Positions 3,758-58,178 of a stretch of DNA of 64,000 nucleotides are shown piece after piece (the stretch's first letter is position 1; each line of letters starts with the position of its first letter). The DNA comes from Paraspadella gotoi. Taxonomy: Eukaryota; Animalia; Chaetognatha. The notes under the pieces are model-generated. The model saw nothing but the letters and a program-made list of their open reading frames with translations, was not told the DNA's origin and made no database searches. A program made the position numbers and the translations under genes. The stretch is taken from NCBI GenBank assembly GCA_051294375.1, contig JBJCIZ010000207.1, positions 6,731 to 70,730 on the forward strand. Reading direction: 5' to 3'.

Positions 3758-4269
3758 AAATGTCAAAAATGACATTCTATTACCTCTATTTTAGGAATAA
3801 GATAGATCGACAGGATGTGTGACCGCGTTTCTAATGATAGGGATAAATATACCCGTTAATTTAGATCCGTTTGTGTGAGTTCATTTAAGTTAGTGTAGTT
3901 TATAATTTAAAGGGTCAAAATGGCACACCCGTGAGCCCGGAGGAATTCTGAGGCTACACGGCACCGAAAAAATGGGATAAAAATGCCCAACAAAATCTTG
4001 ATTCTATTTATATATATATATATTGGCGACAGTTGCGGCCGACGAGCGACAGTCAAAGGGAAAGTTACGTTTCTCTTTCTGGATCGAAAGCAGCAGCGGC
4101 AGCTGCAGTCCGAATGACAGCTGGAAAGGAATGTGACGACAACTTCTTTTCGCCGATCGTGACAAAGCGACGTGCGCGGCGGGCGCCGCGACGCCGACCC
4201 CTTTTACCTGGGACCAGGTGCAAAATGCCCGAAACAATTTTATGAACTATAAAGTTTAAATGACTTTAA

Positions 4270-4337
4270 CAAAGTTCGAAAATAGTTTCTTCAACGATTT
4301 TTATAAAAATCGTTGAAGAAACTATTTTCGAACTTTG
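4270..4337. repeat. Perfect 68-bp spacerless palindrome
   Basis: CAAAGTTCGAAAATAGTTTCTTCAACGATTTTTA|TAAAAATCGTTGAAGAAACTATTTTCGAACTTTG. Confidence 0.95.
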
Positions 4338-5086
4338 CTTAAATCTCAACTCAACGAAACTGAAAGGATTATTACAATGACTTTAACGTAATCGTTGACA
4401 TATCATTAATAACTGATAATATCATAAGGATATATCAATAGTATGGCTGTTTTAAAATGCACAAAAATGTTTTTAAATATTGACACCCGGTATCGTAATG
4501 TGAAACGTATGTAAGTGATGTTACAATTTGAGGGATATAATATGGTTATAAGTAATAGTAATATGGACTAGAAAGAATGACAGTTTTGAGTTAGACAATT
4601 TTGACAAATTATTTTGAAAGCTTAGCTTCACTAGTTGTGAGTTAGGTTTAGAACATGAGTTTAATAACAGAATGCGATTTTAAAATTATTATATCTTAGT
4701 CATTTTATATATAATTCATTTATGCTATGGTAATAGATGTGGTTAACTTATAACTAGTTAATTTAATAACTAGTTTGCTTTGAAATGAAAAAAAAATAAT
4801 ATTTTAAGAAAATTTAAAGTATGTTTTAAAATATTTTAAGAGATAAAAATGAGCTATTCAATTATGTATTAGTATATAATTATAATATGAAATACTATAG
4901 TTTTTAGAATTTTAATCCTGAAACTAATTTTGATATTTTGCATGTTGTCAAAAGTATTGTGAAACCTTTTAATTGGTTAGTTATGTTAACTAATCATGAA
5001 CATAAATACCTTTAAACTCGTGAATCTTCTAAGACTGTCTATAATCCATTGCATTATTAGAATTACATTATAATCCTTTTATAATT

Positions 5087-15100: not shown

Positions 15101-18100
15101 CTGACGACAAAATGAAAATTTTTGCGAGAGGGGTAGGTGAGTGATACATCATAGAAATTTTATGTCACAGTTCAATTTCATTTACTTGAATAAATAAGGC
15201 GACATTTCTTTGTTTTGTTTCTTTCTTTAAGGAATCCCACAGCTCAAAGGATCACACTGTAAAATGAAGACCGGAAGCTTGCGCAAGATAGCGGACTAGC
15301 AAGCTCAACAAAATGTGTGACCAAATGGCGCTTAACATGGCGGCACAAAGTTACTACCTTACTACCAACAAGTATGTCGACACAAAACAAGTAGCAACTA
15401 CCAACACAGTTTGATGATAGAATGTTTTAAATTTGTTTGAAACTTACGAATTGGCAAATTCGTACTCCATTAACACAAAATAAAATGGCTAGCGTACAGG
15501 GATCCAGCTATGGTAATCACGTATAATGAAAGATGTCAAACTGATATTCTTATTTACCTATAACACAAAGTTCGCTCTCTCTTTAAAGTATCAATAAATA
15601 GAGCATATATTCGTTATGGTAGTAATAGAGCATCAATTTTAAAATATTATAATTTCCAAGCTCTAAAAGTTATATGCGAGAATATTTAAACAATATACAA
15701 TCTCGTTTCAAATATGATAGAATTTTGATCGTGTTTTAATAACTAAGTACAATAAAATACCTTTTAAGATGAGAAATTATACATAGCGATTCCTATGTGT
15801 AATGTATGAAAGGCTGTGTAATGTACGAGTTGTGATACCAGACTCGGCGTCTGTTTTCCTCTTTACGATTTCTAATACATCCTAACTTTTATTATATATA
15901 CTTAAGCAGCAATGTTTCTCAAGATGATAATGAAACCGGTTTGCAAAATTTAATTGAATTTTTCTTTAAAAAAAAAATTCTTATATACTTAACATGGTAA
16001 ATGATACACATGAATGAACATATTTGTTTTGCAATTGGTTTGTTGTGCTTTTCCTGTTATATGCTGGCACACCCCTCACGTTGCTTTTGTCATATATCAT
16101 CTTCACGCTTACACGCGTTGTTGTTGTCTGTTCTTTTGTAAAAGAAAAGAAAATATAGTAAAGGGACGAACTTTAAGTTTAATATTCATTATGGGACTGG
16201 ATAAGAAATGCCAGTTACATTTCTGCAGAACAATTTTTGTATCTCTTGATAATAATAAAATAACGAGATTTTTTAATGCATTTTTTTTTGGAAAGCAGGG
16301 ACAGGATGGAGTGTTGAGCATGTTAAAATTTTGAAAAAAAAAATGCTTGAATTGCATTGGTAACTTGAATGTTTGATATCAATGATAAATGAACTTGGAC
16401 AACATTCAGCTCAATAGTGAGAGACTGAACATCTTAATCACAGGCGGTATGGACCTCCTGGTGACAATGTCAAAAGTCAAGTTTGACGAAGAATAAGGTC
16501 ACATTTAGACGATGATCAACGTTATTTTATGTGACACTACATACATGGGGAATGAAAGTAACTAATTTTAATTAATAAATTAATTGGTTAGTGTCTTATT
16601 AATCACAGTAAAATTAAAAGCATTCCTATTTGTGATGATTCATTCACGTCAAAGAACCTTAATCACCGATACCGTGAAAATCGGTGAATCACCACAGCAG
16701 AGTGGTGCAGGACTAATTCGTTCAAACTATTGTACTCTAGCAACAACCGTAAACATTAATCAATAATGTCCATAATCTATTATCAATTACTTTTCTTATT
16801 TGAAACTTTATTGATAGTATAAATTTCGACTCATTCCATATCAATCCACTTATTATATTTTATTGAATATGAACATTTGGATCAACTCCATCTCAATCAC
16901 TTAAATATTCCTTAAGGCTTCAAGATACGATTGACAACGAGATGAGGCATGCGAAACCATGGTTTCTCTGTGGCGCAGCCCAATGTCGAGGATCCATAGT
17001 TTGTGTATTCACGACTTGATCACAAAGAAATGTTTTTGATCAGTCTTCTTTTTTACATAATAATGTAGGCAGCAAAGTTTTAAAATTAATTCAAGTTATT
17101 AAATTGCTGTTCGAGTTGAGTCAAAACATATTTAGAATCAGTCTCTAAGCTAGACAATGGCGTTAAACGTATGTCGTCAGAGTTAGGACGAGGTTGCCAA
17201 GGAAATATGTAAACAGTTTTAATTCTCTTAAGTTTCACCATCTTTGGTTGCCGAATATTTGGTTTTGATTGACTTGTTTTATTAGATACCTGCTATTTAA
17301 TTTGAATTCCTGCAGAACTCGTTTTTTTTCTTATGACGCGGGTCTCTTTTTTTGTATCTATCGACTATTTAGCGCATTTTATCCGATTTGGGTTTACATC
17401 CCAATTATTAACGCGTTCTTACTTTTACTTTACTCCTAACATTTCGACTAGCTCATGTATGACGCGTGTAAATATCCTTTTTGCTAATGTTTTTAAATTT
17501 TGGTTTCTTGGGCCTCCAATTTTGTTACAACTTTTGACATATAATCTAATAAATTCACATTAATTGATTAATTATATCTTTGGGAGGGCGGTGTCAGACA
17601 ATATAAAGCTAATTATTACACAAATCCTCGGTCTTAGTTTTACAAATAAACCTTTTCGCGCAATTGTAAACAAATCGTGCTTTTTTGGTTTTTTCGATCG
17701 GTCGCAATTGCATAAAAAGAGAGAGTGAGAGAGAGAGAGAGAAAAGGAGACATAAACTAAAATAGAGGATATTTGTTTGTTTTGATAAAATGTAAACAAA
17801 ACATATTTAATAACTGTCCTAACCCAATTTTAAGGACATCGATGATGATAAGTTGAATATAAATTTAAAATTAATTATTATATATTAATATTAATTAATT
17901 AATTAATTATCGTAGGCAGATCCGACATTGTTTACTCAAACTTGTTTTTTTTAAATTAACTTTAATTTTCTTCGGTACTTTATTATTTTTTTTAATTGAC
18001 AATCGCAAAATAGAATTTTTCTTTCTGTTTATAAATTAATTTTTTTTTTCAATTTTTTTTTTTTTTAGTATCAAAATTTGTCGTCAATCCAGATTTTTCT

Positions 18101-18680
18101 TATGAGATTGCGATTTTTATTTTTTCCATTTAAACTCATTTACACTAGGACGATTCCATTGAAACTTGATTTCCAGCTTAATCACTCACTTTCCTACCCA
18201 CATACAAAATTTCAAGTCAATCGCCCCATCCACTCATGAGTAATTGAAGTTCTAATAGTGAAATATATTTTTTTTCCATTTAAACTCATTTCCACTCTCA
18301 CGATTCCATCGAAACTTCATATCCAGCTCAATCACACACTTCTCTACCCACACCCAAAATTTCATTCCAATCCATCCATCCAATCTCGAGCAATTGGAGT
18401 CTTTTGCTAAGGTGGGATGGACGGACATCGTTTTTAGTCCATTCCAAACTTTTGTAACTTTTTATTGCTAAAAGTAGATTTTTTTACTGTATTTTTAATA
18501 GTATAATAATTTTTTCCACATAATTATATAACAAATGTTGCTTACTCTTATTATTACTGCGTAAATTATCACTAACACGTTATAAAAAGCATATGATGTA
18601 AAACAGAATACAAGTGTTCCGTTTTACCCCAATTTAATTTTAGCCATGTAAAAAATAATTGAATTATTTTTTCATAGTAT

Positions 18681-19238
18681 TGAAGAGATAGTAATTATTG
18701 TTTTGTTAGTGCCAGAACCGTTCAATATAAGCAGTCCCCGAGCTTCGGATCAGGCTGTCTTACCGTGTTACAGGCGGGGAAAGTGCCCCGTCCTTCTTAA
18801 CTGCAAGACGGCCACCGGGCTAGAACCTCGGACCTTTCGGTTGGGAGGCGAATAACTTGCCTCCGGCACCAGTGGCCGCTGATAAACGGTTGGTGGATTT
18901 TAGTCCACCATACATCCCCCCCTCCCGTAGGGAGAAGTCTGTTGCATCTCTTCAGTGAATTGTTGTTGTTGGTGGACAGTGTGTCACCAAGTTGAGGCAT
19001 GTCGCCTGTTGTGTTGTTGGCGGAAAGTGAATCGCCCAGGTTGAGGCATGTCGCCTGAAAGTGTGCTGTTGTGTTCGGAAAGTCGGGTCACCAATGAAGA
19101 GATAGTAATTATTGTTACGTGTTAGTGACAGAACCGTTCAATATAAGCAGCCCTGAGCATCGGATCAGGCGTAACACCTGTTACAGGCGGGTTAAGTGCC
19201 CCGTCCCTCTTAACTGCTAGGCGGCCACCGGCTAGAAC
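18681..19238 (-). mobile_element. TRIM family B (tRNA-like module in LTR), copy 1; 5' LTR truncated
   Basis: On minus: partial LTR 19238-19095 ending CTCTTCA; PBS TGGTGACCCGAC (close to tRNA-Trp PBS TGGTGACCCCGAC); ~180 bp internal region; PPT GGGAGGGGGGGA; full LTR TGTATGG...CTCTTCA 18914-18681. Confidence 0.8.
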
Positions 19239-19273
19239 TCACAAATTGTATTCTAATTCACAAACGTCAAGCG

Positions 19274-19310
19274 CTGATGAAGGCTCGAAAATTGTGAGCC
19301 GAAACATGTC
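19274..19310 (+). ncRNA. Minimal type I hammerhead ribozyme (Penelope-like)
   Basis: CTGATGA-A-GGCTC..GAGCC-GAAA-CATGTC, followed by AATAAAATTGTTGT. Confidence 0.8.
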
Positions 19311-19836
19311 TGCTTTCTCACAAATAAAATTGTTGTAAAAAATTCAAAAACTTTGCTAAATTATTTTTTCGAAATAAATTAGTAGTCTCGTCATTAGATA
19401 TTAATATTCCATTGTCCATATTACGTCAAAATTGACTGTGACAGCAGCAGCCGAATGCTGTACTTTAATAATGGAAAGTCAAGTTGGTGAAATAATAAAT
19501 GACCCCAAAAAAATTATAAAATATCTATACACAATTTTTTTATTTTCATTTTATATGTCAGTATTTCCGAATTACCCCTGTCCGAATTACCCCACACTAC
19601 CCTATTAAATGTAAATTGAAGCTGCAACAAATACAACAATTAATTAAATAATTATCTAATTAGCTTACCGCTAATGATCGTGGGCAGATCCTGCATTGTT
19701 TGCTCAATAAATGTTATAATAGCTTGGTTACGGACATATTTCATATTGTGTTATAGTTTATATATATAATAATATATATAGTTTTAACTTTTACTTTCTT
19801 TTTCGATATTTTGTGTTTTTTATCTTTCCCACTTAG

Positions 19837-22955: not shown

Positions 22956-24253
22956 TCTTGTTCGAGCTTTAAAAAGTTAAATGAAAATTAGTAATATAAT
23001 TTTTTCAAATTTTGACAATTAATTGGTTAAAAATAAAAAAACCTAAAAAAAATCATCATCATTATTGGCTCTGAATTTTTATTTTTTTTAAAATTTTTCA
23101 TTAATAAAACAAAAAAAATTTTAAAAAGTTGTATAAATAAACCTTTATCTAACTTTTAAGCTCTATCAGAATCTATTAAAAAAAATTGATAAGCAAAATT
23201 TTAAAAATTATTTTCATTTAATATTATTTAATTGTCGCTTAACCATTATTTATTTGAGAGCTTCTAGTTTTCAACCTGTTCCGGCCTAATATCTAGTAAG
23301 GCGGCCAAATTGAACACTTTTTATAACTTCCAGTTCTCTTTTAAAAATTTTTTTTCCTTTTTACTACTAAATCGATTTTCAAATGTAACTTTTTATTAGT
23401 TCATTGGGTTATTGCCACTGAAGCTTTTAAATATTTTTTAATATATAATAATAATATATCAATGTTTTGACGGAATTGTTGCAGATCGGAAATTGATGAC
23501 TACATGTTGCTCGAAAGAATATCTAATGAACACCATACATACAATTTACTTGATATTTTACGTTATTAAATAGATTATATAATGATTTAACTTATAACAT
23601 TAAATTGAAAATAAATGATGCAAGTTCAAAAAAATCTTAAAAGGCATAAGATCGTCGCATTGCATAAAAAGAGAGAGTGAGAGAGAGAGAGAGAGAAAAG
23701 GAGACATAAACTAATAATAGAGGATATTTGTTTGTTTTGATAAAATGTAAACAAAACATATTTAATAACTGTCCTAACCCAATTTTAAGGACATCGATGA
23801 TGATAAGTTGAATATAAATTTTAAAATTAATTATTATATATTAATTATATTAATAATTAATTAATATTATTCGTAGGCAGATCCGACATTGTTTGCTCAA
23901 ACTTGTTTTTTTTTAAATTAACTTTAATTTTCTTCGGTACTTTATTATTTTTTTTTATTGACAATCGCAAAATAGAATTTTTTCTTTCTGTTTATAAATT
24001 AATTTTTTTTTTCAATTTTTTTTTTTTTAGTATCAAAATTTGTCGTCAATCCAGATTTTTCTTATGAGATTGCGATTTTTTATTTTTTCCATTTAAACTC
24101 ATTACACTAGGACGATTCCACGAAACTGATTTCCAGCTTAATCACTCACTTTCCTAGCCACATACAAAATTTCAAGTCAATCGCCCCATCCACTCATGAG
24201 TAATTGAAGTTCTAATATGAAATATATTTTTTTTCCATTTAAACTCATTGTGC

Positions 24254-25021
24254 TGTGGGATAAGGCCGCTACGTGGCTGAAGATGACCCTGTCCGTAATT
24301 CTATAACCCCTCTAGCCAAGCCCCATTGGAACGGCTGTCCCTGGCGCTTGGAACCAGGCTTGAGGTTTTGCCATGCCCCCAAGGCGGCTTACGGCGCGTC
24401 CTCACGCCTTCCCGCTAGGGTACGCGTACCTCTGGTTGGATTTGAAACCGTACATAGTGGTCATGAGCTTGATGCTTTTACTCAATGCAGCCACCGCCTG
24501 GGCTCCAACAACTGAAAGCGTCACCTGATTCTTTGGCGGGCGTGCAACCTAGCAATGACTTCCCCGACTACATGCCCCCCCAGATTGTAAACCCACCCTG
24601 CCACTGCTTCCAGTGGAGGGCGGGGAAGCAATCTCAGCTAGACCAAGGCCCTGGAATCAGAAGGTTGGAATACGCTCGACAGGGATGGGCCTCACCAGTG
24701 TGGATAAGGCGCTACGTGCGCGCTGAAGATGCACTGTCCGCTAACTTCTTATAACCCCTCTAGCATCCATGGAACGCGGTCCCTGCGCTGAACCCAGCGC
24801 CTTGCAGGGTTTGCCATGGCCCCAAGGCGGCTTACGGCCCGCTACTCACGTCCTAATCCACGACTAGGCGTAAGGTACCTGCGTTAGGGACTTGAACCGA
24901 CGGTACCTAGTGCGGTCATTTGCAGCTTGATGGCTTTACTCAATGAGCAAACCGCGTCACAACTTGAAAGTTGTCATGATTCTTGGCGGGCTGTTTGCAA
25001 CTTAGCCAATGGCCCGACTAC
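24254..25021 (-). mobile_element. TRIM family A, full length (two ~0.3 kb LTRs, ~126 bp internal region)
   Basis: LTRs 24699-25021 and 24254-24572 match the solo LTR 41855-42139. On minus, LTR end ...TCCACA-C-TGGTGAGGCCC (PBS-like); G-tract PPT GGGGGGGCA before TGTAGTCGG. Confidence 0.85.
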
Positions 25022-25443
25022 CTATTCCACTTCCTTCACCGATTTCCATCGTAAAAGCTTCATATCTCAGCTCAATCACACACTTCTCTCTACCTCACAC
25101 CCATCAAATTTCATTTTCCAAATCCATCCCTCCTAATCACGACGCAATTGGAGTCTTTTGCTTAAGCGTGGACTGGCACGGACATCGCTTCCCTTTAACG
25201 TCCATTCCAAACTTTTGTAACTTTTTATTGCTAAAAATAGATTTTTTTACTGTATTTTTAATAGTATAATAACTTTTTCCACATAATTATATAACAAATG
25301 TTGCTAACTCTTATTATTACTGCGTAAATTATCACTAACACGTTATAAAAAGCATATGATGTAAAACAGAATACAAGTGTTCCGTTCTACCCCAATTTAA
25401 TTTTAGCTATGTAAAAAATAATTGAATTATTTTTTCATGGTAT

Positions 25444-26002
25444 TGAAGAGATAGTAATTATTGTTGTGTTAGTGACAGAACCGTTGAATATAAGCAGTCC
25501 CTGAGCTTCGGATCAGGCTGTATTACCGTGTTACAGGCGGGTTAAGTGCCCCGTCCTTAACTGCAAGACGGCCACCGGGCTAGAACCCCGGACCTTTCGG
25601 TTGGGAGGCAAATAACTTGCCTCCGGCACCAGTGGCCGCTGATAAACGGTTGGTGGATTTTAGTCCACCATACATCCCCCCCTCCCGTAGGGAGAAGTCT
25701 GTTGCGTCTCTTCAGTGAATTGTTGTTGTTGGTGGAAAGTGTGTCACCAAGTTGAGGCATGTTGCCTGTTGTGTTGTTGGTGGAAAGTGAATCGCCAGGT
25801 TGAGGCATGTCGCCTGAAAGTGTTGCTGTTGTGTTCGGAAGTCAGGCTCACCAATGAAGAGATAGTAATTATTGTTACGTGTGAGTGACAGAACCGTTCA
25901 ATATAAGCAGTCCCTGAGCATCGGATCAGGCTGTAACACCGTGTTACAGGCGGGTTAAGTGCCCCGTCCCTCTTAACTGCTAGGCGGCCACCGGGCTAGA
26001 AC
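25444..26002 (-). mobile_element. TRIM family B, copy 2
   Basis: Same layout as 18681-19238: LTR 25444-25674, PPT, internal region, PBS-like TGGTGAGCCTGAC, truncated LTR 25855-26002. Confidence 0.8.
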
Positions 26003-26037
26003 TCACAAATTGTATTCTAATTCACAAACGTCAAGCG

Positions 26038-26073
26038 CTGATGAAGGCTCGAAATTGTGAGCCGAAACATGTC
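26038..26073 (+). ncRNA. Minimal type I hammerhead ribozyme (duplicate of 19274)
   Basis: CTGATGAAGGCTCGAAATTGTGAGCCGAAACATGTC. Confidence 0.8.
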
Positions 26074-26601
26074 TGGCTTTCTCACAAATAAAAATTGTTG
26101 TAAAAAATTCAAAACTTTGCTAAATTATTTTTTTCGAAATAAATTAGTAGTCTCGTCAATTAGATATTAATATTCCATTGTCATATTACGTCAAAATTGA
26201 CTGTGACAGCAGCAGCCGAATGCTGTAACTTTAATAATGGAAAGTCAAGTTGGTGAAATAATAAATGACCCCAAAAAAAATTATAAAATATCTATACACA
26301 ATTTTTTTATTTCATTTTATATGTCAGTATTCCGAATTACCCCTGTTCCGAATTACCCCACACTACCCTATTAAATGTAAATTGAAGCTGCAACAAATAC
26401 AACAATTAATTAAATAATTATCTAATTAGCTTACCGCTAATGATCGTGGGCAGATCCTGCATTGTTTGCTCAATAAATGTTATAAATAACTTGGTTACGG
26501 ACATATTTCATATTGTGTTATAGTTTATATATATAATATATATAGTTTTTAACTTTTAATTTCTTTTTCGATATTTTGTGTTTTTTATCTTTTCCACTTA
26601 G

Positions 26602-29900: not shown

Positions 29901-30984
29901 TAGTTTTTTACACTTTCTTTCTTTCTCTCTCTCTCTCTCTCTCTCTTTATCTCTTTTTTTACAAAAAAAAAATTTATTCACTTTTTTTTTCACCACCGTC
30001 ACTAGGCGACGAGTAAACGAGTAAACTAGTTCCGGCTCTCTCTCTCTCTCTCTCTTGTGTGATCGTTCTTTTTTTGAAAAATTATGAATATGTTTTTCCT
30101 TCTAAAAACTTTTATTATCGCCATTTATTCGGGGCTTTTTTCTCAATACAAAATCCCAAATTTACATCCGAGATTTTCGTGGACACATTTTATAAAAAGT
30201 AAAGAATAACTTATAATGACATGCATTGTCACATGTAAATCAGCTAATGTGACCTATTATATATGTGGCACTATTGCTGAATAATATAATTACATGCATC
30301 ATATTTTTATTTATTATTGTAACTTTGGACCGGTTGGCCCACTATTGGCAAATTATATCTAAAATAGGAGTTGATAAGAGAAATATAGTCAAATTAAACA
30401 TACTTTTTTGTTTTTCTTAAATTATTAAATTTATAAATATTTTTAGTGTATATATATTAATCATTTTTATCTTTTTTTTAAATAATAATTATTTGAGTTG
30501 TGATAACTATTTATAAATTAATTAAATATGCAAATATAAAAATTTGACCTCGTCTGGTTTCTTCCTAAAAAAAGAACAATTTTTTCTCTCTCTTTCTCTC
30601 TCTCTCTCTTTTTTTTTCCTTCTAAAAACTTTTTATTATCGCCATTTATTCCGCGCTTTTTTCTCAATACAAAAATCCCAAATTTACATCCGAGATTTTC
30701 GTGGATTTTTTGTTACAAAAAAAATTATTCACTTTTTTTTTCAGCACCGTCACAAGGCGACGAGTAAACGAGTTCCGGCTCTTCTCTTTCTCTCTATCTG
30801 TCTCTTTTTCTCTCTCTCTCTCTTTCTCTCTATCTCTTTTTTTTTTAACAAAAATAATTTTTTAGTCACTTTTTTTTCACGACGAGTAAACGATTAAACG
30901 AGTTCCTGCTCTCTCTCTCTCTGTCTTTCTTCTCTCCCTCTCTCTCTCTCTCCCTCTCTCATTCTCTCTCTCTCAATAACTCAT

Positions 30985-31360
30985 CGCGTCAATGAATGAC
31001 TAGCATCGCATCAATGAATGACTATCGATGATCATGATACTATCATCGCATCATGAATGACTATCATCGCATCAATGAATGACTATCATCGCATCAATGA
31101 ATGACTATCATCGCATCAATGAATGACTATCATCGAATCAATGAATGACTATCATCGCATCAATGAATGACTATCACCATCATGATGACTATCATCGCAT
31201 CAATGAATGATTATCATCATCAATGAAGTACTATCATCACATCAATGAATGATTATCATCGCATCCATCATTTGTTATCATCGCATCAATCCTTTGGTTA
31301 TCAATCGCATCAATATTGTTATCATCGCATCAATATTTGGTTATCATCGCATCAATATTG
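30985..31360. repeat. 22-bp minisatellite GACTATCATCGCATCAATGAAT
   Basis: Period 22 (31059, 31081, 31103...), decaying at the 3' end. Related array at ~59439-59560. Confidence 0.9.
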
Positions 31361-35369: not shown

Positions 35370-37213
35370 AGAGGAGGATTGAGCCTGCCGTCCAATTCTC
35401 CTCTTCCTCTTCTTCTTCTTTCCTCCTCCTGCCCCTCAGTATATTTTGTCTAGCGATACATTCTCTCGTTTCTACTCTTCGCGAAATATACCATTATTTT
35501 TCCCTCTATTACTTCACGCCTTCAATACCCCTCAAGTGGCGCCTTCTTCGCGGCTCGATACCCTACACCCCGTGGATTAAGTTTCCTGTGCAAACCCTCA
35601 GCAAAAAAAAAACCGCGGAAATTCTATAAAAAAAACTATCTTCCTTCACTAACAACCAAAAACAAACTTAAAAATAAACAAAATTTACAAACTCCCATCT
35701 AAAAAAAAAGATACCATTTTACAAAATAACTATTAAAATCACTAAAAGAAATTGCATAATTTTAAAAACAAAACCCTACTTGATATTTATTACAAGATAA
35801 TTTTCTCCTTTCTCTTCACTCTTCGTCAACCAAAACTTGGAATTTTCAAAATCTAAACATCAAACTTTGAACCTGGCAACTAAAAACAAGCTCGCTTCAA
35901 CTCTCTCTCTCTCTCCAACTAAAAATGGCGAAAGCTAAGATTGGACTTTAACCTCTTAAAGAAACTGAAATAGCAAGTCCCTTAATGTGGAATATAGAAT
36001 AGACACTCCCTGAAAATGGCAGCAATCAACTTTAAAGATCCAATCAGTTCTGATGACCTCAAAGGAGAATATATTGGCATCTTGGAAAATCTGATGAATT
36101 TTTCTAAAAGATTGCATACTAATAATGCAAACCCACGAATTCTGGACAAGAATATAATGGATCTACTTGCTTTGGTGCAGAATACACATATGTCCCTTCT
36201 GCCTTTAAAAACCCAAACTGTCTCCACCCCAACTCAAACCTATTTCACCCCAGCCAATGCTTCAACCCAGACCACAAAACCCAAGGCTAGTTGCAATAAA
36301 TCAACTCAGACTAAAATACCCTACTCAACCTCCTCTTCCCAAACTACCCAAACTGCCATCATTTCTGATTCAGTTTCAACACAAACCATTGTTGCCAAGA
36401 CTGATTCTCAAGTACAGACCGACCTACCAACTGTCAAAAACTATGCTAATGATGTGAAAACTCAAGCGGGAAAAATCCAAGGAGAAACTTCATTTGCAAG
36501 AATCAACTCAAACAAGAATCAACACAAAAATCAAGCCTGCTCTTATCAGTCTCCGGTCAAGAAATGGGAAACAAAATCAAGAAATGAAAGAACTGGACCC
36601 TGGAAAGAATACATGATCCCTCAAACCTGCGCTGAAAAAATCTATATCCCCCCTCATCGACGTGTTCCTCAAGACCAAAGAAGGCAACCAGTTTTTGGAA
36701 AACGCAAAAATACTTGCAAAAATAACTGATGGAAATAGACTTACGACCATGGTTGCGCCAGATGTTTGCTGCATTTTTGGCTCAGACTTTACCATTGCCC
36801 TTTTTTTAAGAATCAATATCAGTCATGGTGCAGTGGCATAACTTGTCAATGACTGTGACATAAATTAAAAATAAACTTTTAATCATTTAAATAGTAGCTT
36901 TGATAGAAATCCAATAGTTTTAGTTTGTGACTTCTCTCACTTTTTTAGTTCTGTGTCTTTGTTTTTTAGTCCAGAGGGAAGCATGACGATGTAATGCCAC
37001 GCCATTGGGGGCCTGGACATTACATCTTGGTCAAGAAGGGGGACGCAGAGGAGGATTGAGCCTGCCATCCAATTCTCCTCTTTCTCTTCTTCTTCTTTCC
37101 TCCTCCTGCCCCTCAGTATATTTTGTTTAGCGATACATTCTCTCGTTTCTACTCTTGGCGAAATATACCATTATTTTTCCCTCTATTACTTCACGCCTTC
37201 AATACCCCTCAAG
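35370..37213 (+). mobile_element. Complete 1.84 kb non-autonomous LTR element with one ORF
   Basis: 167-bp direct repeats 35370-35536 and 37047-37213; PBS-like TGGCGCC..GGCTCGA at 35537; PPT AAGAAGGGGGA 37033-37043; flanking duplication ATAGTC (35364-35369, 37214-37219). Confidence 0.9.
36016..36729 (+). CDS. Element-encoded protein with TQT motif array and YIPPHRR motif (function unknown)
   Basis: 237-aa ORF, homologous in three copies. The true C-terminus is probably ..LMEIDLRPWLRQMFAAFLAQTLPLPFF via an indel near 36720, as read in frame in ORF 308-502. Confidence 0.75.
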   Translation: MAAINFKDPISSDDLKGEYIGILENLMNFSKRLHTNNANPRILDKNIMDLLALVQNTHMSLLPLKTQTVSTPTQTYFTPANASTQTTKPKASCNKSTQTKIPYSTSSSQTTQTAIISDSVSTQTIVAKTDSQVQTDLPTVKNYANDVKTQAGKIQGETSFARINSNKNQHKNQACSYQSPVKKWETKSRNERTGPWKEYMIPQTCAEKIYIPPHRRVPQDQRRQPVFGKRKNTCKNN

Positions 37214-38096
37214 ATAGTCTTAAAACTAATTAAAATATTTAAAAACTATAAAGGGTTTGAAAGCGGACATCATGTTGATTCCAAATCTATTTTTGTTTTT
37301 AAAATTTGATTTCTTGATCTTGTTTTACAGACTAATACATTTGTAAAAATTAAGAAAAATGAATTTAAAACTAACTTTGAAAAAGTAATATCTTCTTGCT
37401 ATTGAAATTTTAATTGAAGGATAAGATTCGCCAAAGATATCAAGGGAAGAAGTGTCATTATTTTTTTTTATGAAAAAAGAATAAGATTTTTTTTAATAGG
37501 CGGCTGAGGCAGAGGTTTTTCGAAGATTAGGATTTAGTAAGGACTTAAATTTTCTGCAATATTGAGTACAACCTCACAACATTTTGAGTTCACCTATCTT
37601 TTTCTTACTAACATTGCACAACCAAAGTCAGAGTTCTAATGCAGGCATAATGAGTAGACCTTTCCATATATGAAAAGTTTTTAAATCAAAAAACGTTTGT
37701 TTAAAAGTTGCCCATTAAGGTGGATTTAAAACCTTTATTTTTTTCCTATACCTATTACATATTTCTTCAATATCACTACAACAAAAATAAATATATAGTA
37801 CGAGATCACGCGCATTTTTTAAATTTTATACATTTATAACAATCGTATTATATTATTAGCTCAGAATATTGTCTTAAGACGAGCAAAAATATTAAAATCA
37901 AAAGGATTAAACAATTTTAATAGTAGATCATGAACAGGCTTGTACCTGTGAACATTTTTAAATAAAAAAAAATTAGTTTTCAATTTTTGCATTAGCCCAT
38001 ATTTATACATAGTACTCTCCATAAAAAATGTCAAAATTTTAAAATGATTTTTTCTTATTTTTGAGTACAGATTTGAATTTCTCACAAAAAGTGAAG

Positions 38097-39590
38097 AAAT
38101 AGAGGCGTGAAGAAATACAGGGACAATAATGGTATATTTCACGAAGAGTAGAAACGAGGAATGATCGCTAGACAAAATATACTGAGGGGCAGGAGGAGGA
38201 GGAAAGAAGAAGAAGAGGAGAATTGGACGGCAGGCTAAATCCTCCTCTGCGTCCCCCTTCTTGACCAAGATGTAATGTCCAGGCCCCCAATGGCGTGGCA
38301 TTACATCGTCATGCTTCCCTCTGGACTAAAAAACAAAGACAAGAACTAAAAAAAGTGAGAGAAGTCACAACTAAAACTATTGGATTTCTATCAAAGTTAC
38401 TATTTAAATAATTAAAAGTTTTATTTTTAATTTGTCACAGTCATTGACAATATTATGCCACTGCACCATGACTGATATTGATTCTTAAAAAAAGGGCAAT
38501 GGTAAAGTCTGAGCCAAAAATGCAGCAAACTTCTGGCGCAACCATGTCGTAAGTCTATTTCCATCAGTTTAGGGTAAGTATTTTTGCTTTTTCCAAAAGC
38601 TGGTTGCCTTCTTTGGTCTCGAAGAACACGTCGATGAGGGGGATATAGATATTTTCAGCGCAGGTTTGAGGGATCATGTATTCTTTCCAGGGTCCAGTTC
38701 TTTCATTTCTTGATTTTGTTTCCCATTTCTTGACCGAAGACTGATAAGAGCAGGCTTGATTTTTGTGTTGATTCTTGTTTGAGTTGATTTCTTGCAAATG
38801 AAGTTTCTCCTTGGATTTTTCCAGCTTGAGTTTTCACATCATTAGTATAGTCTTTGACAGTTGGTAGGTCGGTCTGCACTTGAGAATCAGTCTTGGCAAC
38901 ATTGGTTTGTGTTGAAACTGAATCAGAAATTTTGGGTAGTTTTGGAAGAGGAGGTTGAGTAGGGTATTTTAGTCGGAGTTGATTTATTGCAACTAGCCTT
39001 GGGTTTTGTGGTCTGGGTTGAAGCATTGACTTGAGTTGAATAGGTTTGAGTTGAGGTGGAGACAAGTTTGGGTTTTTAAAGGAAGAGGGCTACTGTGTAT
39101 TCTTTACCAAAGTAAGTAGATCCATTATATTCTTGTCCAGAATTCGTGGTTTGCATTATTAGTATGCAATCTTTTAGAAAATTCAATCAGGTTTTTCCAA
39201 GATCCAATATATTCTCCTTTGAGGTCATCAGAACTGATTTGATCTTTAAAGTTTATTGCGGCCATTTTTTGGATTAATGTTCAAGATTTAGGGTAGAAAA
39301 GGTAATTGGTTTTTCTGGACAGTTTATTTTAATTTTTTCTTTTTTTTTTTCTTTCAAGGGAAGCTAACGTTTTTCTTTTTCCCTTTTTCTTAAGAAGGTT
39401 AAAGTCCAATCTTAGCTTTCGCCATTTTTAGTTGGAGAGAGAGAGAGTTGTTTTTAGCGATCTTGTTTTTAGGTTCAAAGTTTGATGTTCAGATTTTGAA
39501 AATTCCAAGTTTTGGTTGACGAAGAGTAAAGAGAAAGGAGAAAGATATTTTGTGATAAATATTAAGTAGGATTTTGTTTCTAAAATTATG
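38097..39590 (-). mobile_element. Inverted, 5'-truncated copy of the TQT-ORF LTR element
   Basis: Reverse complement of ~35755-37197 (ORF fragments 38564-39065). Homology stops at a HINE 5' end at ~39593. Confidence 0.85.
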
Positions 39591-39592
39591 CA

Positions 39593-39760
39593 GTTTTTAG
39601 TCGGGTCTGCTTTCAGCAGATCCCGACTCTATAATTCACTTTGTCGGTCCGTCAGTCCGCCCCCTCAATATTGTCGGGCAGTCACTTATATCATGTCAGA
39701 ACATCGAATTATGATAAATTATGCAAAAAAAAAAACGATGTCCGTCTGTCCGTCCGTCCC
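39593..39760 (+). mobile_element. HINE family 1, 5' fragment
   Basis: TTTTTAGTCGGGTCTGCTTTCAGCAGATCCCGAC hairpin plus GTCC repeats; matches 42665-42840. Confidence 0.75.
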
Positions 39761-41027: not shown

Positions 41028-41854
41028 CAACAGGGATAAATAAATAAGTATTAAAGATACATTTTGTAATGTACAACAATTTTAATTAAAGTTAAATTTA
41101 GAAATTTTACTACACCAACGCAGAGAATGGATTATCAAGTGGCTTGTCTCTCTTGGCTTCTCCGTCTTTTCTTCTGATTGACCAATCAGATTCAGAGAGG
41201 CTTCCCTCAGGAAACCGACGGCAGAGAAACGAGAGAGGGAACAGGATCTCTCTTCAATTTACCTTCAAGAAACAAACATCAAACTATGGACTATTTGTTA
41301 TACTGTTTATTGCCTGCCTTTTCTCTGCATAATCTACATATTTTGTTTGTTAATTATCATCATCCCAACGTGTTCTTATGTCAGTAAAACTCCTCCTATT
41401 TCTCACTTAATAAACCACGCCTACTTCCTTCGTTGACACACTATCATCGAAATAATTTTTTTTATCGGAATAAGGTTAGTCGATTGTACAAAAATATATA
41501 TGCCTAGGAGTCGACGTCATTTTAGAGATCGAGGAAGATTTTTTCAATGGAGATTTTCGTTCAAATCTGACTACAAAACAATATAAACGGTCCTGGGAAA
41601 AGTTCCGATAAAACATTGATGTAAAAAGACTCGATTCAGATCCTGTTGCATCTGAAGGGCTCGCATTTTTTTTCTCTTTATGATTAACCATCATTTTGAC
41701 ATCAAACCATCAGATTTAAATGGACTGGTCCGCTCAGGAAAAAATTTTCATCTCAATTTTTCTATATAAAATAAAGGGATTTCTCAACTTCATTACAATA
41801 TAAACGCATTTAAGGCATGTTGTGATTTTACAATAAACTTTGAACTCAGGAATC

Positions 41855-42139
41855 TGTGGATAAGGCGCTACGTGGGCTGAAGATGACTGTCCGTAACTTC
41901 TATAACCCCCTCTAGCAGCCATGGAACGGGTCCCTGGGCTTGGAACCAGGCTTGAGGGTTTGCCATGCCCCCAAGGCGGCTTACGGCCGTCCTCACGCTT
42001 CCCGCAGGGTAGGTACCGGGTTGGGATTGAACCCGGTACCTAGTGGTCATGAGCTGATGGCTTTATTCAATGAGCCACCGGGTCACAACTGAAAGTGTCA
42101 TGATTCTAGGCGAGTGAACCTAGGCAATGCCCGACTACA
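41855..42139 (-). mobile_element. Solo LTR of TRIM family A
   Basis: TGT...ACA termini, 285 bp, 4-bp TSD AATC (41851-41854 / 42140-42143); matches both LTRs of 24254-25021. Confidence 0.9.
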
Positions 42140-42664
42140 AATCCGATAGCCATATGTCTGAAGGGCTCTCAAAATTTTTCTTTACATTTTATTTAGTTAT
42201 TTTAATATGAAACGATCATGGTAAAGTGAATTAGTCCATTTTGGTGAAATTTTTATTTAAAGTAAAAGTAAAAGAGGAGCTAACGATCGGAATTCTAAGA
42301 GTTTTCAACCGGAAGTCAGATTCGGGAAAATTCTTCTATGGCGAAAATCTTCCAAAGAAGGGGTGGATTTTCCGAAGATTTTGGTTAATATTTTCTATAT
42401 TTATGATCGGATTTTTTTGAAACTTAACAATAGCAATATTGCCATCATTCTACATTGGCCGGTAAAAGAATATATTAAAAAAACCTCTGGCTTTTTTTGT
42501 CAGAGCTTAGTCCTAATATGCCTTTAATTAATTAGGGACTATCATCGGAAACCTCTCAAGCAATATCAGTTGTCAAAAATCATTTCTTTAGGAGACATAA
42601 GGCTTTTCTCTATTTCAGACTCACTTTGTCGAGCTATATTCCAGGAACTTTATGATGAATTTAC

Positions 42665-52158: not shown

Positions 52159-55100
52159 TCATTCGGCGAAAATAAGATGAATTGCATCAATAGCGATCCC
52201 TGCATTTGCAGAAGCAGAGCGGCGAGCAGCCAAACGGGTAAGAGGCGGTCCGCAGGCGGGCATGGCACGGCGGTCCAGCGTTCTCATTTTGTCAACCATT
52301 TTGATGAGGCTCTCTCTGGACAAGTTTGAACGAATAAGATGATCTCCAGGGAATACTTTAAATTCACCAGAGACTAGAGAATGGCACTTGAATGAATTCG
52401 TTGCTATTTTGGCAACTATTTCCCACGCATCTTGATCCACTTTCCTTTGAATTTTTTGTGGAGAACCAAGGAAAAATGAAGTTTTCTTCTTCATGACTAG
52501 ATCTCCAATTTTTAGATGGATGTAATATCTCTCGGATTTTCGCGTTTCCGGCGTTGAAGGAACGGTTCACATCATGGCGCAAAATGTCATTCTGAAGTCT
52601 TCTCCTTGCTTCCAATGTTTCTCTCACACTCTTTGCCGGCGCCGTCACGCCACTAGATGGCAGTTCTCCGTCCGTGTCAAACAGGTTTGCAGATGAACGA
52701 CAAAAATGGACGTCAGAGGGACTTTTTCCAGATAAAATATCTGTACATGTTGAATTGTAAACAACTCTAGCTTCGCCGACGAGAGAATGAAATGGAAGAT
52801 CTGGTTCATGTTCTTGTAATTTGAGCATTATTCTCGTAATAGAATTGATGAATCTCTCTACTTTAGACTGACATCTTGACACATTTGCCAATCCATGTAT
52901 CAACTCCACTCCATGTTGACTAAGGATATTGGCTGAGGGAGTGTTTGATTTACAAAGAGCATTGTCAGCATGGATGCGACGAGGTAAACCACTTCACTCT
53001 TGTCTTATCTTCATTAGACAATCCACTACTTCTTTGTCTTGCGTAGATTTTGTAGGATATGCCCATGCATATCTGGAGAAGAGGTCCACAGCACAAAAAA
53101 TGTACGGAAATGCAGCATCATTGTGGAAGGGTCCTTAAAAGTCAATTGCAACGGAGTTTCCTGGCTCCATGGGTGTCTGCATCCCTCCTTCATCTCTGGA
53201 ACCTTTTTGGTGATTGATCTGAAGGCAGATTGCACAATTTCTGATGTATGTAGAAATCTTCTCTCTCATTCCTTGAATGTAGTAACTTTTTCCCAAAGTT
53301 TTTAATGTTCGATTCACTCCAGCATGAGTTGCTGCAGGATCACGATCTCCAAACAACCAACAATGATCAAAACCTTGATTGACCGCAGCAAATTTTGTTT
53401 CATGAGTCTTACTCAAAAGACGATGAAATTCCATCTCAGACACAACAAGGAGAAACTTGATTCCTCCATCAGGGGCTGTCCACAGCGCGCAGTAGCACTC
53501 CCTGATTACTGATGATGAAGAGACTGCGGTGACGAAGGAATGCCAAAGTCCCCATAGATAAAAGCAAAGCTTCATGTTATCTGGTAACTTCCTCTTTTCC
53601 TTCAAATAATCAATTTTTTCACTCACATCAGGCGCCTGTTGCATTTCCAAGATTTTCTGGAGAACTTTGTCTGCAAAAACTGGAACTTCCTTGGCTTTAA
53701 TTGGCTCATCCACAACTTCGTCAACTTCCTCAGTGTGGCCTGAAGCTACATCTTTATCTGAGAGTTGAACAATTGAGACTGTCCAAGGGGCAAGAAGACC
53801 TTTCCACTTCTTGATTTCAGCTTTCTGCGACGCCTTGTCACTCTTACTGTGAGTAGCACCATTTGAAGAGATGGAATAGCTCCTTTTGTCTAATTCCTTC
53901 TCTATTAGACTGTCCGGATCCCAGTCATCTGATGAAACACTCTACTTTGTCACCGACTGCCGACGGAGGGTGTGCCGGATCAGTGGAATCATTTGCCGGA
54001 AAATGCGTCCACTCAGTGTCATCCATATCGCGGAGTCGGGTCCCGGCTGGACATTTCAATGGGGAGAAAATAGAGACAGAGATAAGAGCTTAACAAAAAT
54101 TGAGATAATTCATCTGAAATACTTTTATTCAGAAGTGATTCAAGCGGAACTTTTTCTCCTTTACCATTCAGAATCCTGCCTTGGAGAAATCTTCTGTCAT
54201 AAGTACCATCTCCTCCATCATTTTCTTCCCATCTGCTCACAACATCAGCTGGATTTGCTCTAGATTCAATAAAAGAAATCTTGAAGTCAAAACTCTGAAG
54301 ATAGATGATTCTTCTCACAAATGCATCATCGACTTTGTCCAGGTTAGCCCATCTTCTCAACACTTGACTATCAGTATAATGTAGAATGGTCTCGCAGTGA
54401 AAAATAGCTAAATCTTTGAACTGTTCATAAAGAGCCAAAAACTCTTTATAAAACGTTGGCAAACTTCTTTTTGCGGGAACCAAAGTCTTTGAATAACATT
54501 GGACAATGTAGAGTTGCCTCTTGTCTCCATCAGCGCCTGCTGCAATCTCTGCTGAAGTTGAAAAAGTTTTGCAGAATCACAGATCCAATGGCATGCTGAG
54601 AGCCATCTGTGAGCACAATCAGCTCATCTTCAAGCTTGGTTGAGGGAACTCTCACCTCCCAAGCTTTTCATCCAGAAGTACACTTTTTGCTTTTTCAAAT
54701 GCTGTTTTGTGGATTTCCAGTGGCTTGAACTTGTCTTTCCTTTTGCTAAATCACGCAATGGCCCAAGTGCTTCACTCAGCTTAGGGTTGCAAGCTAGGAA
54801 CCAAGAGAAAAAAGCAAGCTTAGAAATAAGGTCCTTCCTTGAGTCAGGAAAGGTGAGTTTAGCAATCTTCTCATCTTCTCCCCTGACATTCCTTTTGCTC
54901 CTTCTGAGACTTCATGCCGAGAATCCTCAGTTTGGTCCACTCCCATGTCACTCTTCTTGGCAGACAAAAGCAGGTTATAGGTTGAGCAAATAGCTAGGTC
55001 AGAGGTAGATCTGCATCCAGATGTTGCTTCATGTTCTTGGAGTAGGTAGATGTGTCATCAATGAAGGGCTTGCATCTTTTGTGAATGTCAAAAACATTCT

Positions 55101-55560
55101 CCACCCATTGTTGAGCATACCCAGGACCAACACTGATCCCCATTGGACATCTGAGGTATCTGAAGAACTTTCCCAGAACAAAGAATCCAGTGAACTTTTT
55201 AGATGAATCTTCATCCATCAACAGTTGATGATAGAATCCGGCAGCATCCAAGTTGGAGAAAACTGTGTAATCACCACTGGCAATTTCCCTCCTGAACTCT
55301 TCCATTTCAGGTAGTGGGAAGTGATGAGGCATCAGAGCTTGATTCATTTTTCTGTAATCAACCACCATTCTGCTCTTGGTGACCTCTCTCTTCTCTGTAG
55401 CAACATATCTGCTCTCCAGAATAGTGGATGTTTGACAGCCAACTATCATCTGAATTTGTCATCTCAGTAATGACTCCTTGTTTGAGAAGCTTGTCAATAT
55501 GCTGCTTGATAAAGGGATGATCTTTGCTCAACGAGGTTTCAAAATTCTCTTCACTTTTTG
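52159..55560 (-). pseudogene. pol: Ty3/Gypsy pol: RT - RNase H - integrase, frameshifted
   Basis: RT: RMVVDYRKMN, FSNLDAAGFYHQ, RCPMG, PFIDD. RNase H: VLTDGS, YKEFLAL, YTDSQ, NPADVVSR. Integrase: HAGVNRT...IRNCAIC, AIDF, HADN, SKVER. RT-RH-IN order is Gypsy-type. Confidence 0.95.
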
Positions 55561-57064: not shown

Positions 57065-58178
57065 TATTGTTGAAAATACCCGAATAGAAATCACTGCCAA
57101 AAGGGAATCTTTGCGTCAGAGTGTTTTTCTCAGCTTTGTCCTTTCAGGGAATGTTCTGTTGAAGATTTGAGTTTGATTGGATTCATCCTCACTCCAGTGA
57201 AAAGTTTCAGGTTTTTCTTCATTTGTAAAAGATATGACGATAAGTCCGCAGACCAAAGATCTGACTTCTCACTGATCACTGTCACTAAGATGAGATATTT
57301 TGGAAACTGCTTCAGAAATGCTTCTTTGGTCTCTCGCCAATTAGTGCAAGTTGCTCCTTTTTGTCTCTAATTTTTCAAATCAACTCAATCTTCAAGAAAT
57401 GCATCTTTCACAAGATTTGCCTTACTTGATAGACTCAAAATTGACTCCACGACTATGGCATTCAGTTAGCAATGTCCAGATGACAGTTTGTTTTTTTCCC
57501 CCTCCATGGAAGAAAATGGAACAGCCTTTGTTTTTCTGCATTGAAACATAAGAAACAGAGATTTTCATCTTGAAGTTCAGTCAACTCCTCACCAGAAGAC
57601 TGTGAAATACAAGTAGACTCTGAATCCAAAGTGTCTTTTTCTTCATGTTGAACAACACTCCACCAAAATTTTTCTTTTCTCCAGAACAATTTCTTTCTTT
57701 TGTTTCAATTGATAACTGGAATTTGTAAAGTCTTTGACTTTGCCACCAAAAACTGATACCCCGGAATCATCAATTTATCAGTAGGCTCATTGCATAAAAA
57801 GATAGAAATGAATGCTTTCCTTGTTGGTTTTTCCGGTTTTGTAACTTTCCACCGCCCATGTGATGCTTTGCTTGGATGAATATGTGTTTCCTGGTTAGCA
57901 TACGATGAGTGTAGAAACGCCTGAATCTTCAAGCCAATTTGACGGATATGCTTTAGCGCCCATCTCCACTCTCCTGTCATGCTCATAGTCTTGCATCATA
58001 AAAGTTGATCTGCTTCAACGATGGTAAACAATCAATCTCCAACGTAGTACCAGTCAAATTTCTCTGTATTGAAAGAGATTAGGTATCCTCAATAATCATT
58101 GGAAGACGTTGCTGCCCAAAGATCAACATAAGTTGATTTTATGGGAGCCAACATGAAGCTCCACAGGAAGCTGTCCAG
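57065..58178 (-). pseudogene. Degraded Gypsy pol segment between protease and RT
   Basis: Coding-like minus-strand ORF fragments (57462-57986) between two AT-rich insertions; position-based inference. Confidence 0.55.

Follow-up and report, generated by a model that had tools for sequence, protein, structure and literature searches.

At positions 41855–42139 of the 64-kb stretch of DNA analysed here (the window) lies a solo LTR of a TRIM family, family A, which forms an island of 56% GC in surroundings that average 34% GC across the window (Table 1). Read on the minus strand it starts with TG and ends with CA, and the identical 4-mer AATC is present at either flank. Contigs from all four sequencing runs contain an empty-site junction that skips 289 nt, with 3–4 letters ambiguous, and this length equals the 285-nt LTR plus the 4-bp target-site duplication (TSD). 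Because the flank is a high-copy repeat, the empty-site contigs are empty copies of the host repeat. Dataset X9, a possible RNA run, covers the flanks in the same way as the DNA runs and includes the empty-site joint, and is therefore uninformative on expression. The ends, the flanks and the contigs thus bear out the initial annotation of this segment as an LTR with TG..CA ends and an AATC TSD. The repeat into which the solo LTR is nested has a very high copy number of its own and occupies 41600–41850 and 42144–42400 of the window. Family A itself probably numbers in the order of 10^4 copies, with crude figures of ~13,000 and ~9,500 in two runs; these are ratios of the summed contig depth across the LTR to that of the long contigs listed, and are to be read as orders of magnitude only. 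In metagenomes, a 19-mer probe for the family gave nine loci, with every match at most 26 nt long and therefore attributable to chance.

Table 1 Coordinates of the family A features in the window.
Feature	Position	Strand	Basis
Solo LTR of TRIM family A, 285 nt, GC 0.56, TG..CA	41855..42139	minus	ends, GC, empty-site joint
4-bp target-site duplication, AATC	41851..41854, second copy 42140–42143		flank comparison, empty-site joint
tRNA-like head, putative Pol III +1 at 42084	42010..42084	minus	boxes A/B
Box A-like, TRGCY present, YGG absent	42066..42077	minus	motif reading
Box B, canonical (GGTTC)	42023..42033	minus	motif reading
Type-P5 twister ribozyme motif, predicted	41933..41998	minus	Rfam, descriptor, pairing
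Twister P2	41998, 41996, 41995 with 41978–41980; 41997 bulged	minus	pairing
Twister general-base G	41994	minus	Rfam, descriptor
Twister pseudoknots	41992–41990 with 41942–41944; 41977–41976 with 41938–41939	minus	pairing
Stunted P1: 6-nt palindrome, 6 bp possible with second copy	41984..41989	minus	duplex -10.7 kcal/mol; dimer role putative
Predicted self-cleavage site U^A, after LTR nt 157	41982..41983	minus	analogy with twister consensus
Twister P3 hairpin	41974–41952	minus	pairing
Twister P4/L4	41950–41933	minus	pairing
5′ LTR of full element, indel-noisy, twister motif corrupted	24699..25021	minus	sequence comparison
Internal region, 127 nt, non-coding: PBS-like start, hairpin (z -2.1), PPT	24572..24698	minus	sequence, folding
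3′ LTR of full element, indel-noisy; weak Rfam Twister-P5 match 24416–24341	24254..24571	minus	sequence, Rfam

By BLAST the window holds two further copies of the LTR, at about 25021–24699 and 24572–24253. They bound a full element of 768 nt whose 127-nt internal part opens with a TGG-type PBS and closes with a G-rich PPT. Near 18290 there is a paralogous empty site, a duplicated segment without the whole LTR-internal-LTR unit, and since the entire unit is missing there, 24254–25021 represents one insertion. The flank at 25035–25200 is only 84.5% identical to the paralog, compared with 96–98% for six other flank pieces, and the differences between the two LTRs are mostly gaps. The 5′ LTR starts with GG rather than TG, and because this stretch is indel-noisy neither the TSD nor the 5′ TG can be read. 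The complete LTR-PBS-internal-PPT-LTR element proposed by the initial annotation therefore stands as regards its two LTRs, PBS, PPT and empty site, but not as regards a readable 5′ end and TSD. For the same reason, indel noise, we rejected the 77% identity between the two LTRs as an age estimate. Both LTRs also fail the strict descriptor for the twister motif described below, the 5′ one badly, which is likely due to sequence noise; the Rfam Twister-P5 match in the 3′ LTR has a score of 13 bits (E 9.8). As a separate observation, the region 24250–25200 is much noisier than its surroundings, as if backed by few reads, and the insertion may be polymorphic. The duplicated segment that supplies the empty site (17945–19719 and 23907–26485) includes a USP35/38 exon, and may reflect either a tandem duplication or the serial assembly of two haplotypes. 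The best hits of this USP35/38 ortholog are two unnamed proteins at 56%, followed by molluscs and other animals at 42–50%, and mark the host as an animal.

The LTR had been described as carrying a tRNA-like module, and the elements on which that description rests, boxes A and B, their spacing and a loop heptamer, are indeed there. The putative transcription start corresponds to LTR nt 56, so that 55 nt of LTR precede the head. A descriptor combining both boxes, composed after the sequence had been seen, matches once in the window and in 29 of 100,000 shuffles. Within box A, the solo copy deviates from nearly all family copies at position 42066, and a frequent family variant of box B, seen in loose ends at 42017, still conforms to the GWTCRA type. 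Between 41981 and 42065, no variant of 10% or more is found among the variants listed at that threshold, although position 41997 reaches 24% in one dataset (X4, below). What did not hold up is the tRNA fold: neither ARAGORN nor Rfam (at E<=10) detects a tRNA in the LTR, and on visual inspection neither the acceptor stem nor the anticodon stem closes. The region folds as other hairpins (z -5.6) and not as a cloverleaf. A functional tRNA was rejected on the ARAGORN and Rfam results, and judged by its sequence the head is a promoter-like remnant, not a tRNA. In the RNA, a near-perfect hairpin of 11–13 bp (42042–42010, minus strand) encloses box B. The absence of a TTTT run from the element strand, to which the initial annotation had drawn attention, is real for the solo LTR and the full element but unremarkable, as such a run is also absent from 64% of solo-LTR shuffles and 29% of full-element shuffles; on these frequencies we do not count it as evidence. 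The first T4 runs lie 84–85 nt beyond both 3′ ends. The best reading of these features is a non-autonomous animal LTR element with tRNA-type boxes that Pol III would use.

Such a design is not new. The proposal of a novel tRNA analogue of Cassandra has been overtaken by print, in that the available text of PMC10886601 (Kojima 2024) describes TRIMs with tRNA-like LTRs as Helenus (TRIMp3), the 'twin brother of Cassandra', and the tRNA part alone makes family A one more member of that group. A prior description of this kind is an outcome that the initial annotation had itself named as counting against novelty. According to the same text, Helenus elements occur in fungi, a plant and six animal phyla, have 4-bp TSDs in animals, are probably mobilised by Gypsy elements, and are assigned to Pol III by inference. 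Family A has the characters by which Helenus is recognised: it is short and non-coding, with two LTRs, a PBS, a PPT, a 4-bp TSD, a GGTTC box B and a TRGCY box A. It further resembles Helenus, as far as described there, in having tRNA-like boxes in its LTR and many solo LTRs, in sharing the TSD length of animal Helenus, and in that Pol III use is inferred only. It differs in the twister motif behind box B, in a box A without the YGG that 'most' Helenus have, and in the ~170 nt of LTR beyond box B, whereas in most Helenus LTRs inspected in the available data a T-rich tract closes the LTR shortly behind that box. Six short family A probes against the accessible part of Data S1 of PMC10886601 gave no match in four cases and unrelated contexts in two. 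Cassandra, in the account of PMC10886601 at hand, shares with family A the internal Pol III promoter in the LTR of a TRIM, but is a plant element with a 5S-derived promoter, its own terminator, an 18-nt terminal redundancy and no ribozyme. In the family A LTR, Rfam gives no match to a 5S rRNA-derived segment at E<=10.

Among the Helenus sequences available from that source, two from Synergus wasps, Helenus-2_SyJa-LTR and Helenus-2_SyUm-LTR, show, behind their tRNA module, what looks by eye like a complete type III hammerhead whose loops are complementary; the available text of PMC10886601 makes no mention of a hammerhead in either. As judged by eye, these elements are laid out like family A: the LTR is ~280 nt long and free of T4 runs, and a tRNA module whose box A is weak lies close to its 5′ end, followed by a ribozyme-like motif. 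Unlike family A, they carry a hammerhead-like motif, a tRNA-Trp PBS and a longer internal part with T4 runs.

The unusual part of the family A LTR, overlooked in the first reading, is the twister motif directly behind box B. Its Rfam Twister-P5 match in the solo LTR scores 17.3 bits (E 0.46) and does not reach the RF02684 gathering score of 37.6; the RF02684 model has no slot for P3 and expects a long P1. In an Rfam scan of the whole window, no Twister-P5 match appears at E<=1. A 16-mer from the LTR match led to 30 viral loci. Rfam, run on 20 of the 30, identified 14 twisters at E<=2.2e-7 (12 type-P5 and two type-P1), and one further locus among the 20 held a hammerhead. The viral type-P5 twisters have the pseudoknot partner strand in common with the LTR motif. 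A P5 descriptor, which was composed after seeing the sequence and is loose on P1 and P3, picks out 38 of the 163 viral loci. Its one match in the 64-kb window is the solo LTR, and it matches none of 249,095 dinucleotide shuffles; the P4/L4 hairpin alone is found in 52 of these shuffles. All 16 helix pairs and all five pseudoknot pairs of the LTR motif are Watson-Crick or G.U. It agrees with the type-P5 twister (RF02684) in strand order, with P2, P4 and L4 in the right order, both pseudoknots intact and the catalytic G and A in place. Three features set it apart both from RF02684 and from the viral examples: P3 is an additional hairpin, the 3-bp P2 has a bulge, and P1 is cut to a 6-nt palindrome. 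Its sub-threshold score is a further difference from RF02684.

The reduced P1 can form 1 bp in a monomer and 6 bp in a dimer, compared with at least 5 bp in every one of 39 viral descriptor matches, for which the P1 filter demanded at least 4 bp. At -7.5 kcal/mol, the pseudoknot-free twister fold of the LTR is 18.5 kcal/mol less stable than the minimum of -26.0, and pair probabilities in the LTR are 0 for P2 and 0.12–0.19 for P3 and P4. The same folding gap has a median of 6.4 and a maximum of 20.0 in the 39 viral matches, and plant retrozyme RNAs likewise fold with the ribozyme blocked according to the available text of PMC4918200. Two other readings, a type-P1 twister that uses the G-rich run at 41916–41908 and a twister-sister, were dropped by eye against the consensus features, as P2 and the cleavage-site bases misfit. 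The run in question (minus strand, downstream of P4) is a second GAG-purine run, perhaps a leftover of a type-P1 arrangement or a competitor in pseudoknot formation. A relaxed scan of the window for hammerheads found none; the twister motif stands in its place.

Variation among family copies was assessed in four runs on 41925–42030 at a 1% threshold. Variants were listed only within 41962–41998, and L4/P4 are probably outside the assessable span. Within that span, five sites vary by more than 3% in X4. Two of them, 41962 (41%) and 41966 (73%), are in the P3 loop, and 41997 (24%) is the P2 bulge; 41980 (12%) changes a G.U to an A-U pair, and 41989 (3.4%) a C-G to a U.G pair. Variation at core positions does not exceed 1.3%. 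The chance of five sites all sparing the fold is ~0.003–0.011 if CpG decay and shared descent are ignored. Most sites are invariant across the family, as a young family would also show, and within the assessable 41962–41998 no two-sided compensatory change is seen in the family. In X10, which carries a second organism label, the twister stretch is spanned by a single contig of 161 nt that shows three differences and comes from either a relative or contamination.

We lean, by a modest preference, towards reading family A as a Helenus-type mini LTR retrotransposon that combines tRNA-type boxes with a type-P5 twister, and that is likely transcribed by Pol III, cut twice, converted to a circle of ~412 nt and copied by Gypsy enzymes. 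Pol III would start at LTR nt 56 and read through the T4-free element into the 3′ LTR. The twister would cut after LTR nt 157 in each LTR and so release a unit of 285 + 127 = 412 nt, whose 5′-OH and cyclic-phosphate ends would be joined into a circle by a host RtcB-type ligase. Priming by a tRNA at the PBS and reverse transcription round the circle would restore two LTRs, and the enzymes of a Gypsy element, in line with the 4-bp TSD, would carry out copying and integration. The circle is the likely template because the double cut strips the terminal redundancy that a linear template requires. For plant LTR retrozymes, which also have 4-bp TSDs, a circular template is argued in the available text of PMC4918200, and RtcB-type circularisation in vitro is reported for animal hammerhead retrozymes in that of PMC7229834. 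No partner Gypsy element with a shared PBS was identified in the window. A broken LTR-retrotransposon pol is present at 52159–55458 (minus strand), spread over several frames, with RT, RNase H and an integrase zinc finger in Gypsy-like order, but nothing was found to connect it with family A. A PBS-like 8-mer at 57594, upstream of this pol, was rejected as it has no LTR context, and no LTR pair surrounds the pol.

For the cleavage step, the accessible part of PMC11662667 states that ~94% of the natural twisters tested there cleaved, and that defects in P1, P2 and P4 were tolerated but pseudoknot defects were not, for type-P1 twisters only; P1 is dispensable in vitro according to the available text of PMC5408937. 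It is about an even call whether the palindromic P1 lets both LTR copies in a transcript pair with each other ahead of cleavage, or whether a P1-less monomer cuts; dimer-dependent hammerheads are described in animal repeats (PMC7229834, in part).

A comparison with plant LTR retrozymes, as described in the available portions of PMC4918200 and PMC7761336, shows on both sides an LTR element that is non-autonomous and has one ribozyme per LTR, a 4-bp TSD, GC near 55% and a predicted circle of unit length to be copied by Gypsy enzymes. Family A is unlike them in residing in an animal, in its twister instead of a type III hammerhead, in its tRNA-type boxes, in its unit of ~412 rather than ~700 nt, and in that its circles are predicted only. 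Of the attributes that define an LTR retrozyme, LTRs, a PBS, a PPT, a 4-bp TSD and the lack of a coding region are all present in family A, and a hammerhead in each LTR is not. By analogy, family A likely works like an LTR retrozyme while lying outside the definition, with the twister replacing the hammerhead. Metazoan retrozymes, in the available text of the same two papers, have no LTR, PBS or PPT. The Perere-3 twisters of Schistosoma (PMC8501958, available part) are similar in being weak-P1 twisters that serve an animal retrotransposon, but the element that carries them, at its 5′ end, is an autonomous non-LTR retrotransposon, their P1 forms at the ribozyme termini, and neither LTR nor circle is involved. 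In the literature searched, most subscription papers and Repbase entries being outside it, no description was found of a twister in LTRs or of a ribozyme in Helenus, and the available parts of PMC10085705, PMC6765202 and PMC13570524 added no twister-bearing LTR element.

The main rival, which we consider rather unlikely, is an ordinary Helenus-type TRIM with an inactive or misfolded twister relic, making a linear R-U5...U3-R RNA that ends at the flank T-run. The Rfam score below threshold, the large folding gap with its P2 probability of zero and the collapsed P1 would all fit a relic, the T4 runs 84–85 nt past both 3′ ends could terminate its transcripts, and dead sequence would be conserved in a young family too. 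Against this, neither the two pseudoknots nor the two catalytic bases are damaged, the variable sites spare the fold, and loss of P1 is tolerated in vitro in the available accounts (PMC11662667, PMC5408937). The ribozyme might instead be active but serve to form 3′ ends, or to free the element's RNA from longer host transcripts, with a linear template, cutting in the 3′ copy only and R comprising LTR nt 56–157. We regard this as improbable: both LTRs hold the whole motif downstream of the putative start and nothing obvious protects the 5′ copy, and a palindrome in P1 is more in keeping with a symmetric double cut. An element without a T4 terminator would nonetheless be served by such a role, Schistosoma Perere-3 RNA is released by twisters without circles (PMC8501958, available part), and cleavage by a monomer, if slow, could spare many 5′ copies.

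Very improbable, in our view, is a tRNA-headed SINE or non-LTR retrozyme with coincidental LTR-like ends, or a chance twister look-alike. Schistosome SINE-like repeats do join a Pol III promoter to a hammerhead (PMC6765202, available part), and the window has a single, noisy full copy. The TG..CA ends, the 4-bp TSD, the 55 nt before the tRNA head and the PBS and PPT between two copies speak against a SINE, however, and the lack of the motif from all 249,095 shuffles against a look-alike.

If the Helenus-type element with a working twister is the correct reading, it would give a concrete job to genomic twisters, whose roles are mostly unknown, and would carry the LTR retrozyme beyond plants into animals and beyond hammerheads to twisters. 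It would also explain how a terminator-less Pol III TRIM obtains a copyable RNA, and provide a natural test case for a twister working as a dimer. A more specific version, which is doubtful but worth stating, is an animal LTR retrozyme with a Pol III tRNA promoter whose twister cuts only as a dimer of LTR copies via the palindromic P1, so that only full-length transcripts would give the ~412-nt circle. Together with the hammerhead-bearing wasp Helenus-2, family A would then define a branch of TRIMp3 that carries ribozymes, with one ribozyme class able to replace another.

Several other features of the window were noted. A second TRIM family is present at 18681–19238 and 25444–26002 (minus strand), with a 3′ LTR of ~230 nt, a truncated 5′ LTR, a tRNA-Trp-like PBS, a PPT and a box B-like motif. 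At ~25535–25501 it shows a twister-like arrangement with a seemingly compensated pseudoknot, without P1 and the general-base G, and Rfam gives no twister match in this family. The window also contains a multi-kb inverted repeat at 35749–39596 that is related to 1–626, a 22-nt tandem array at 30943–31312 and an AT-rich near-perfect palindrome at 4261–4345.
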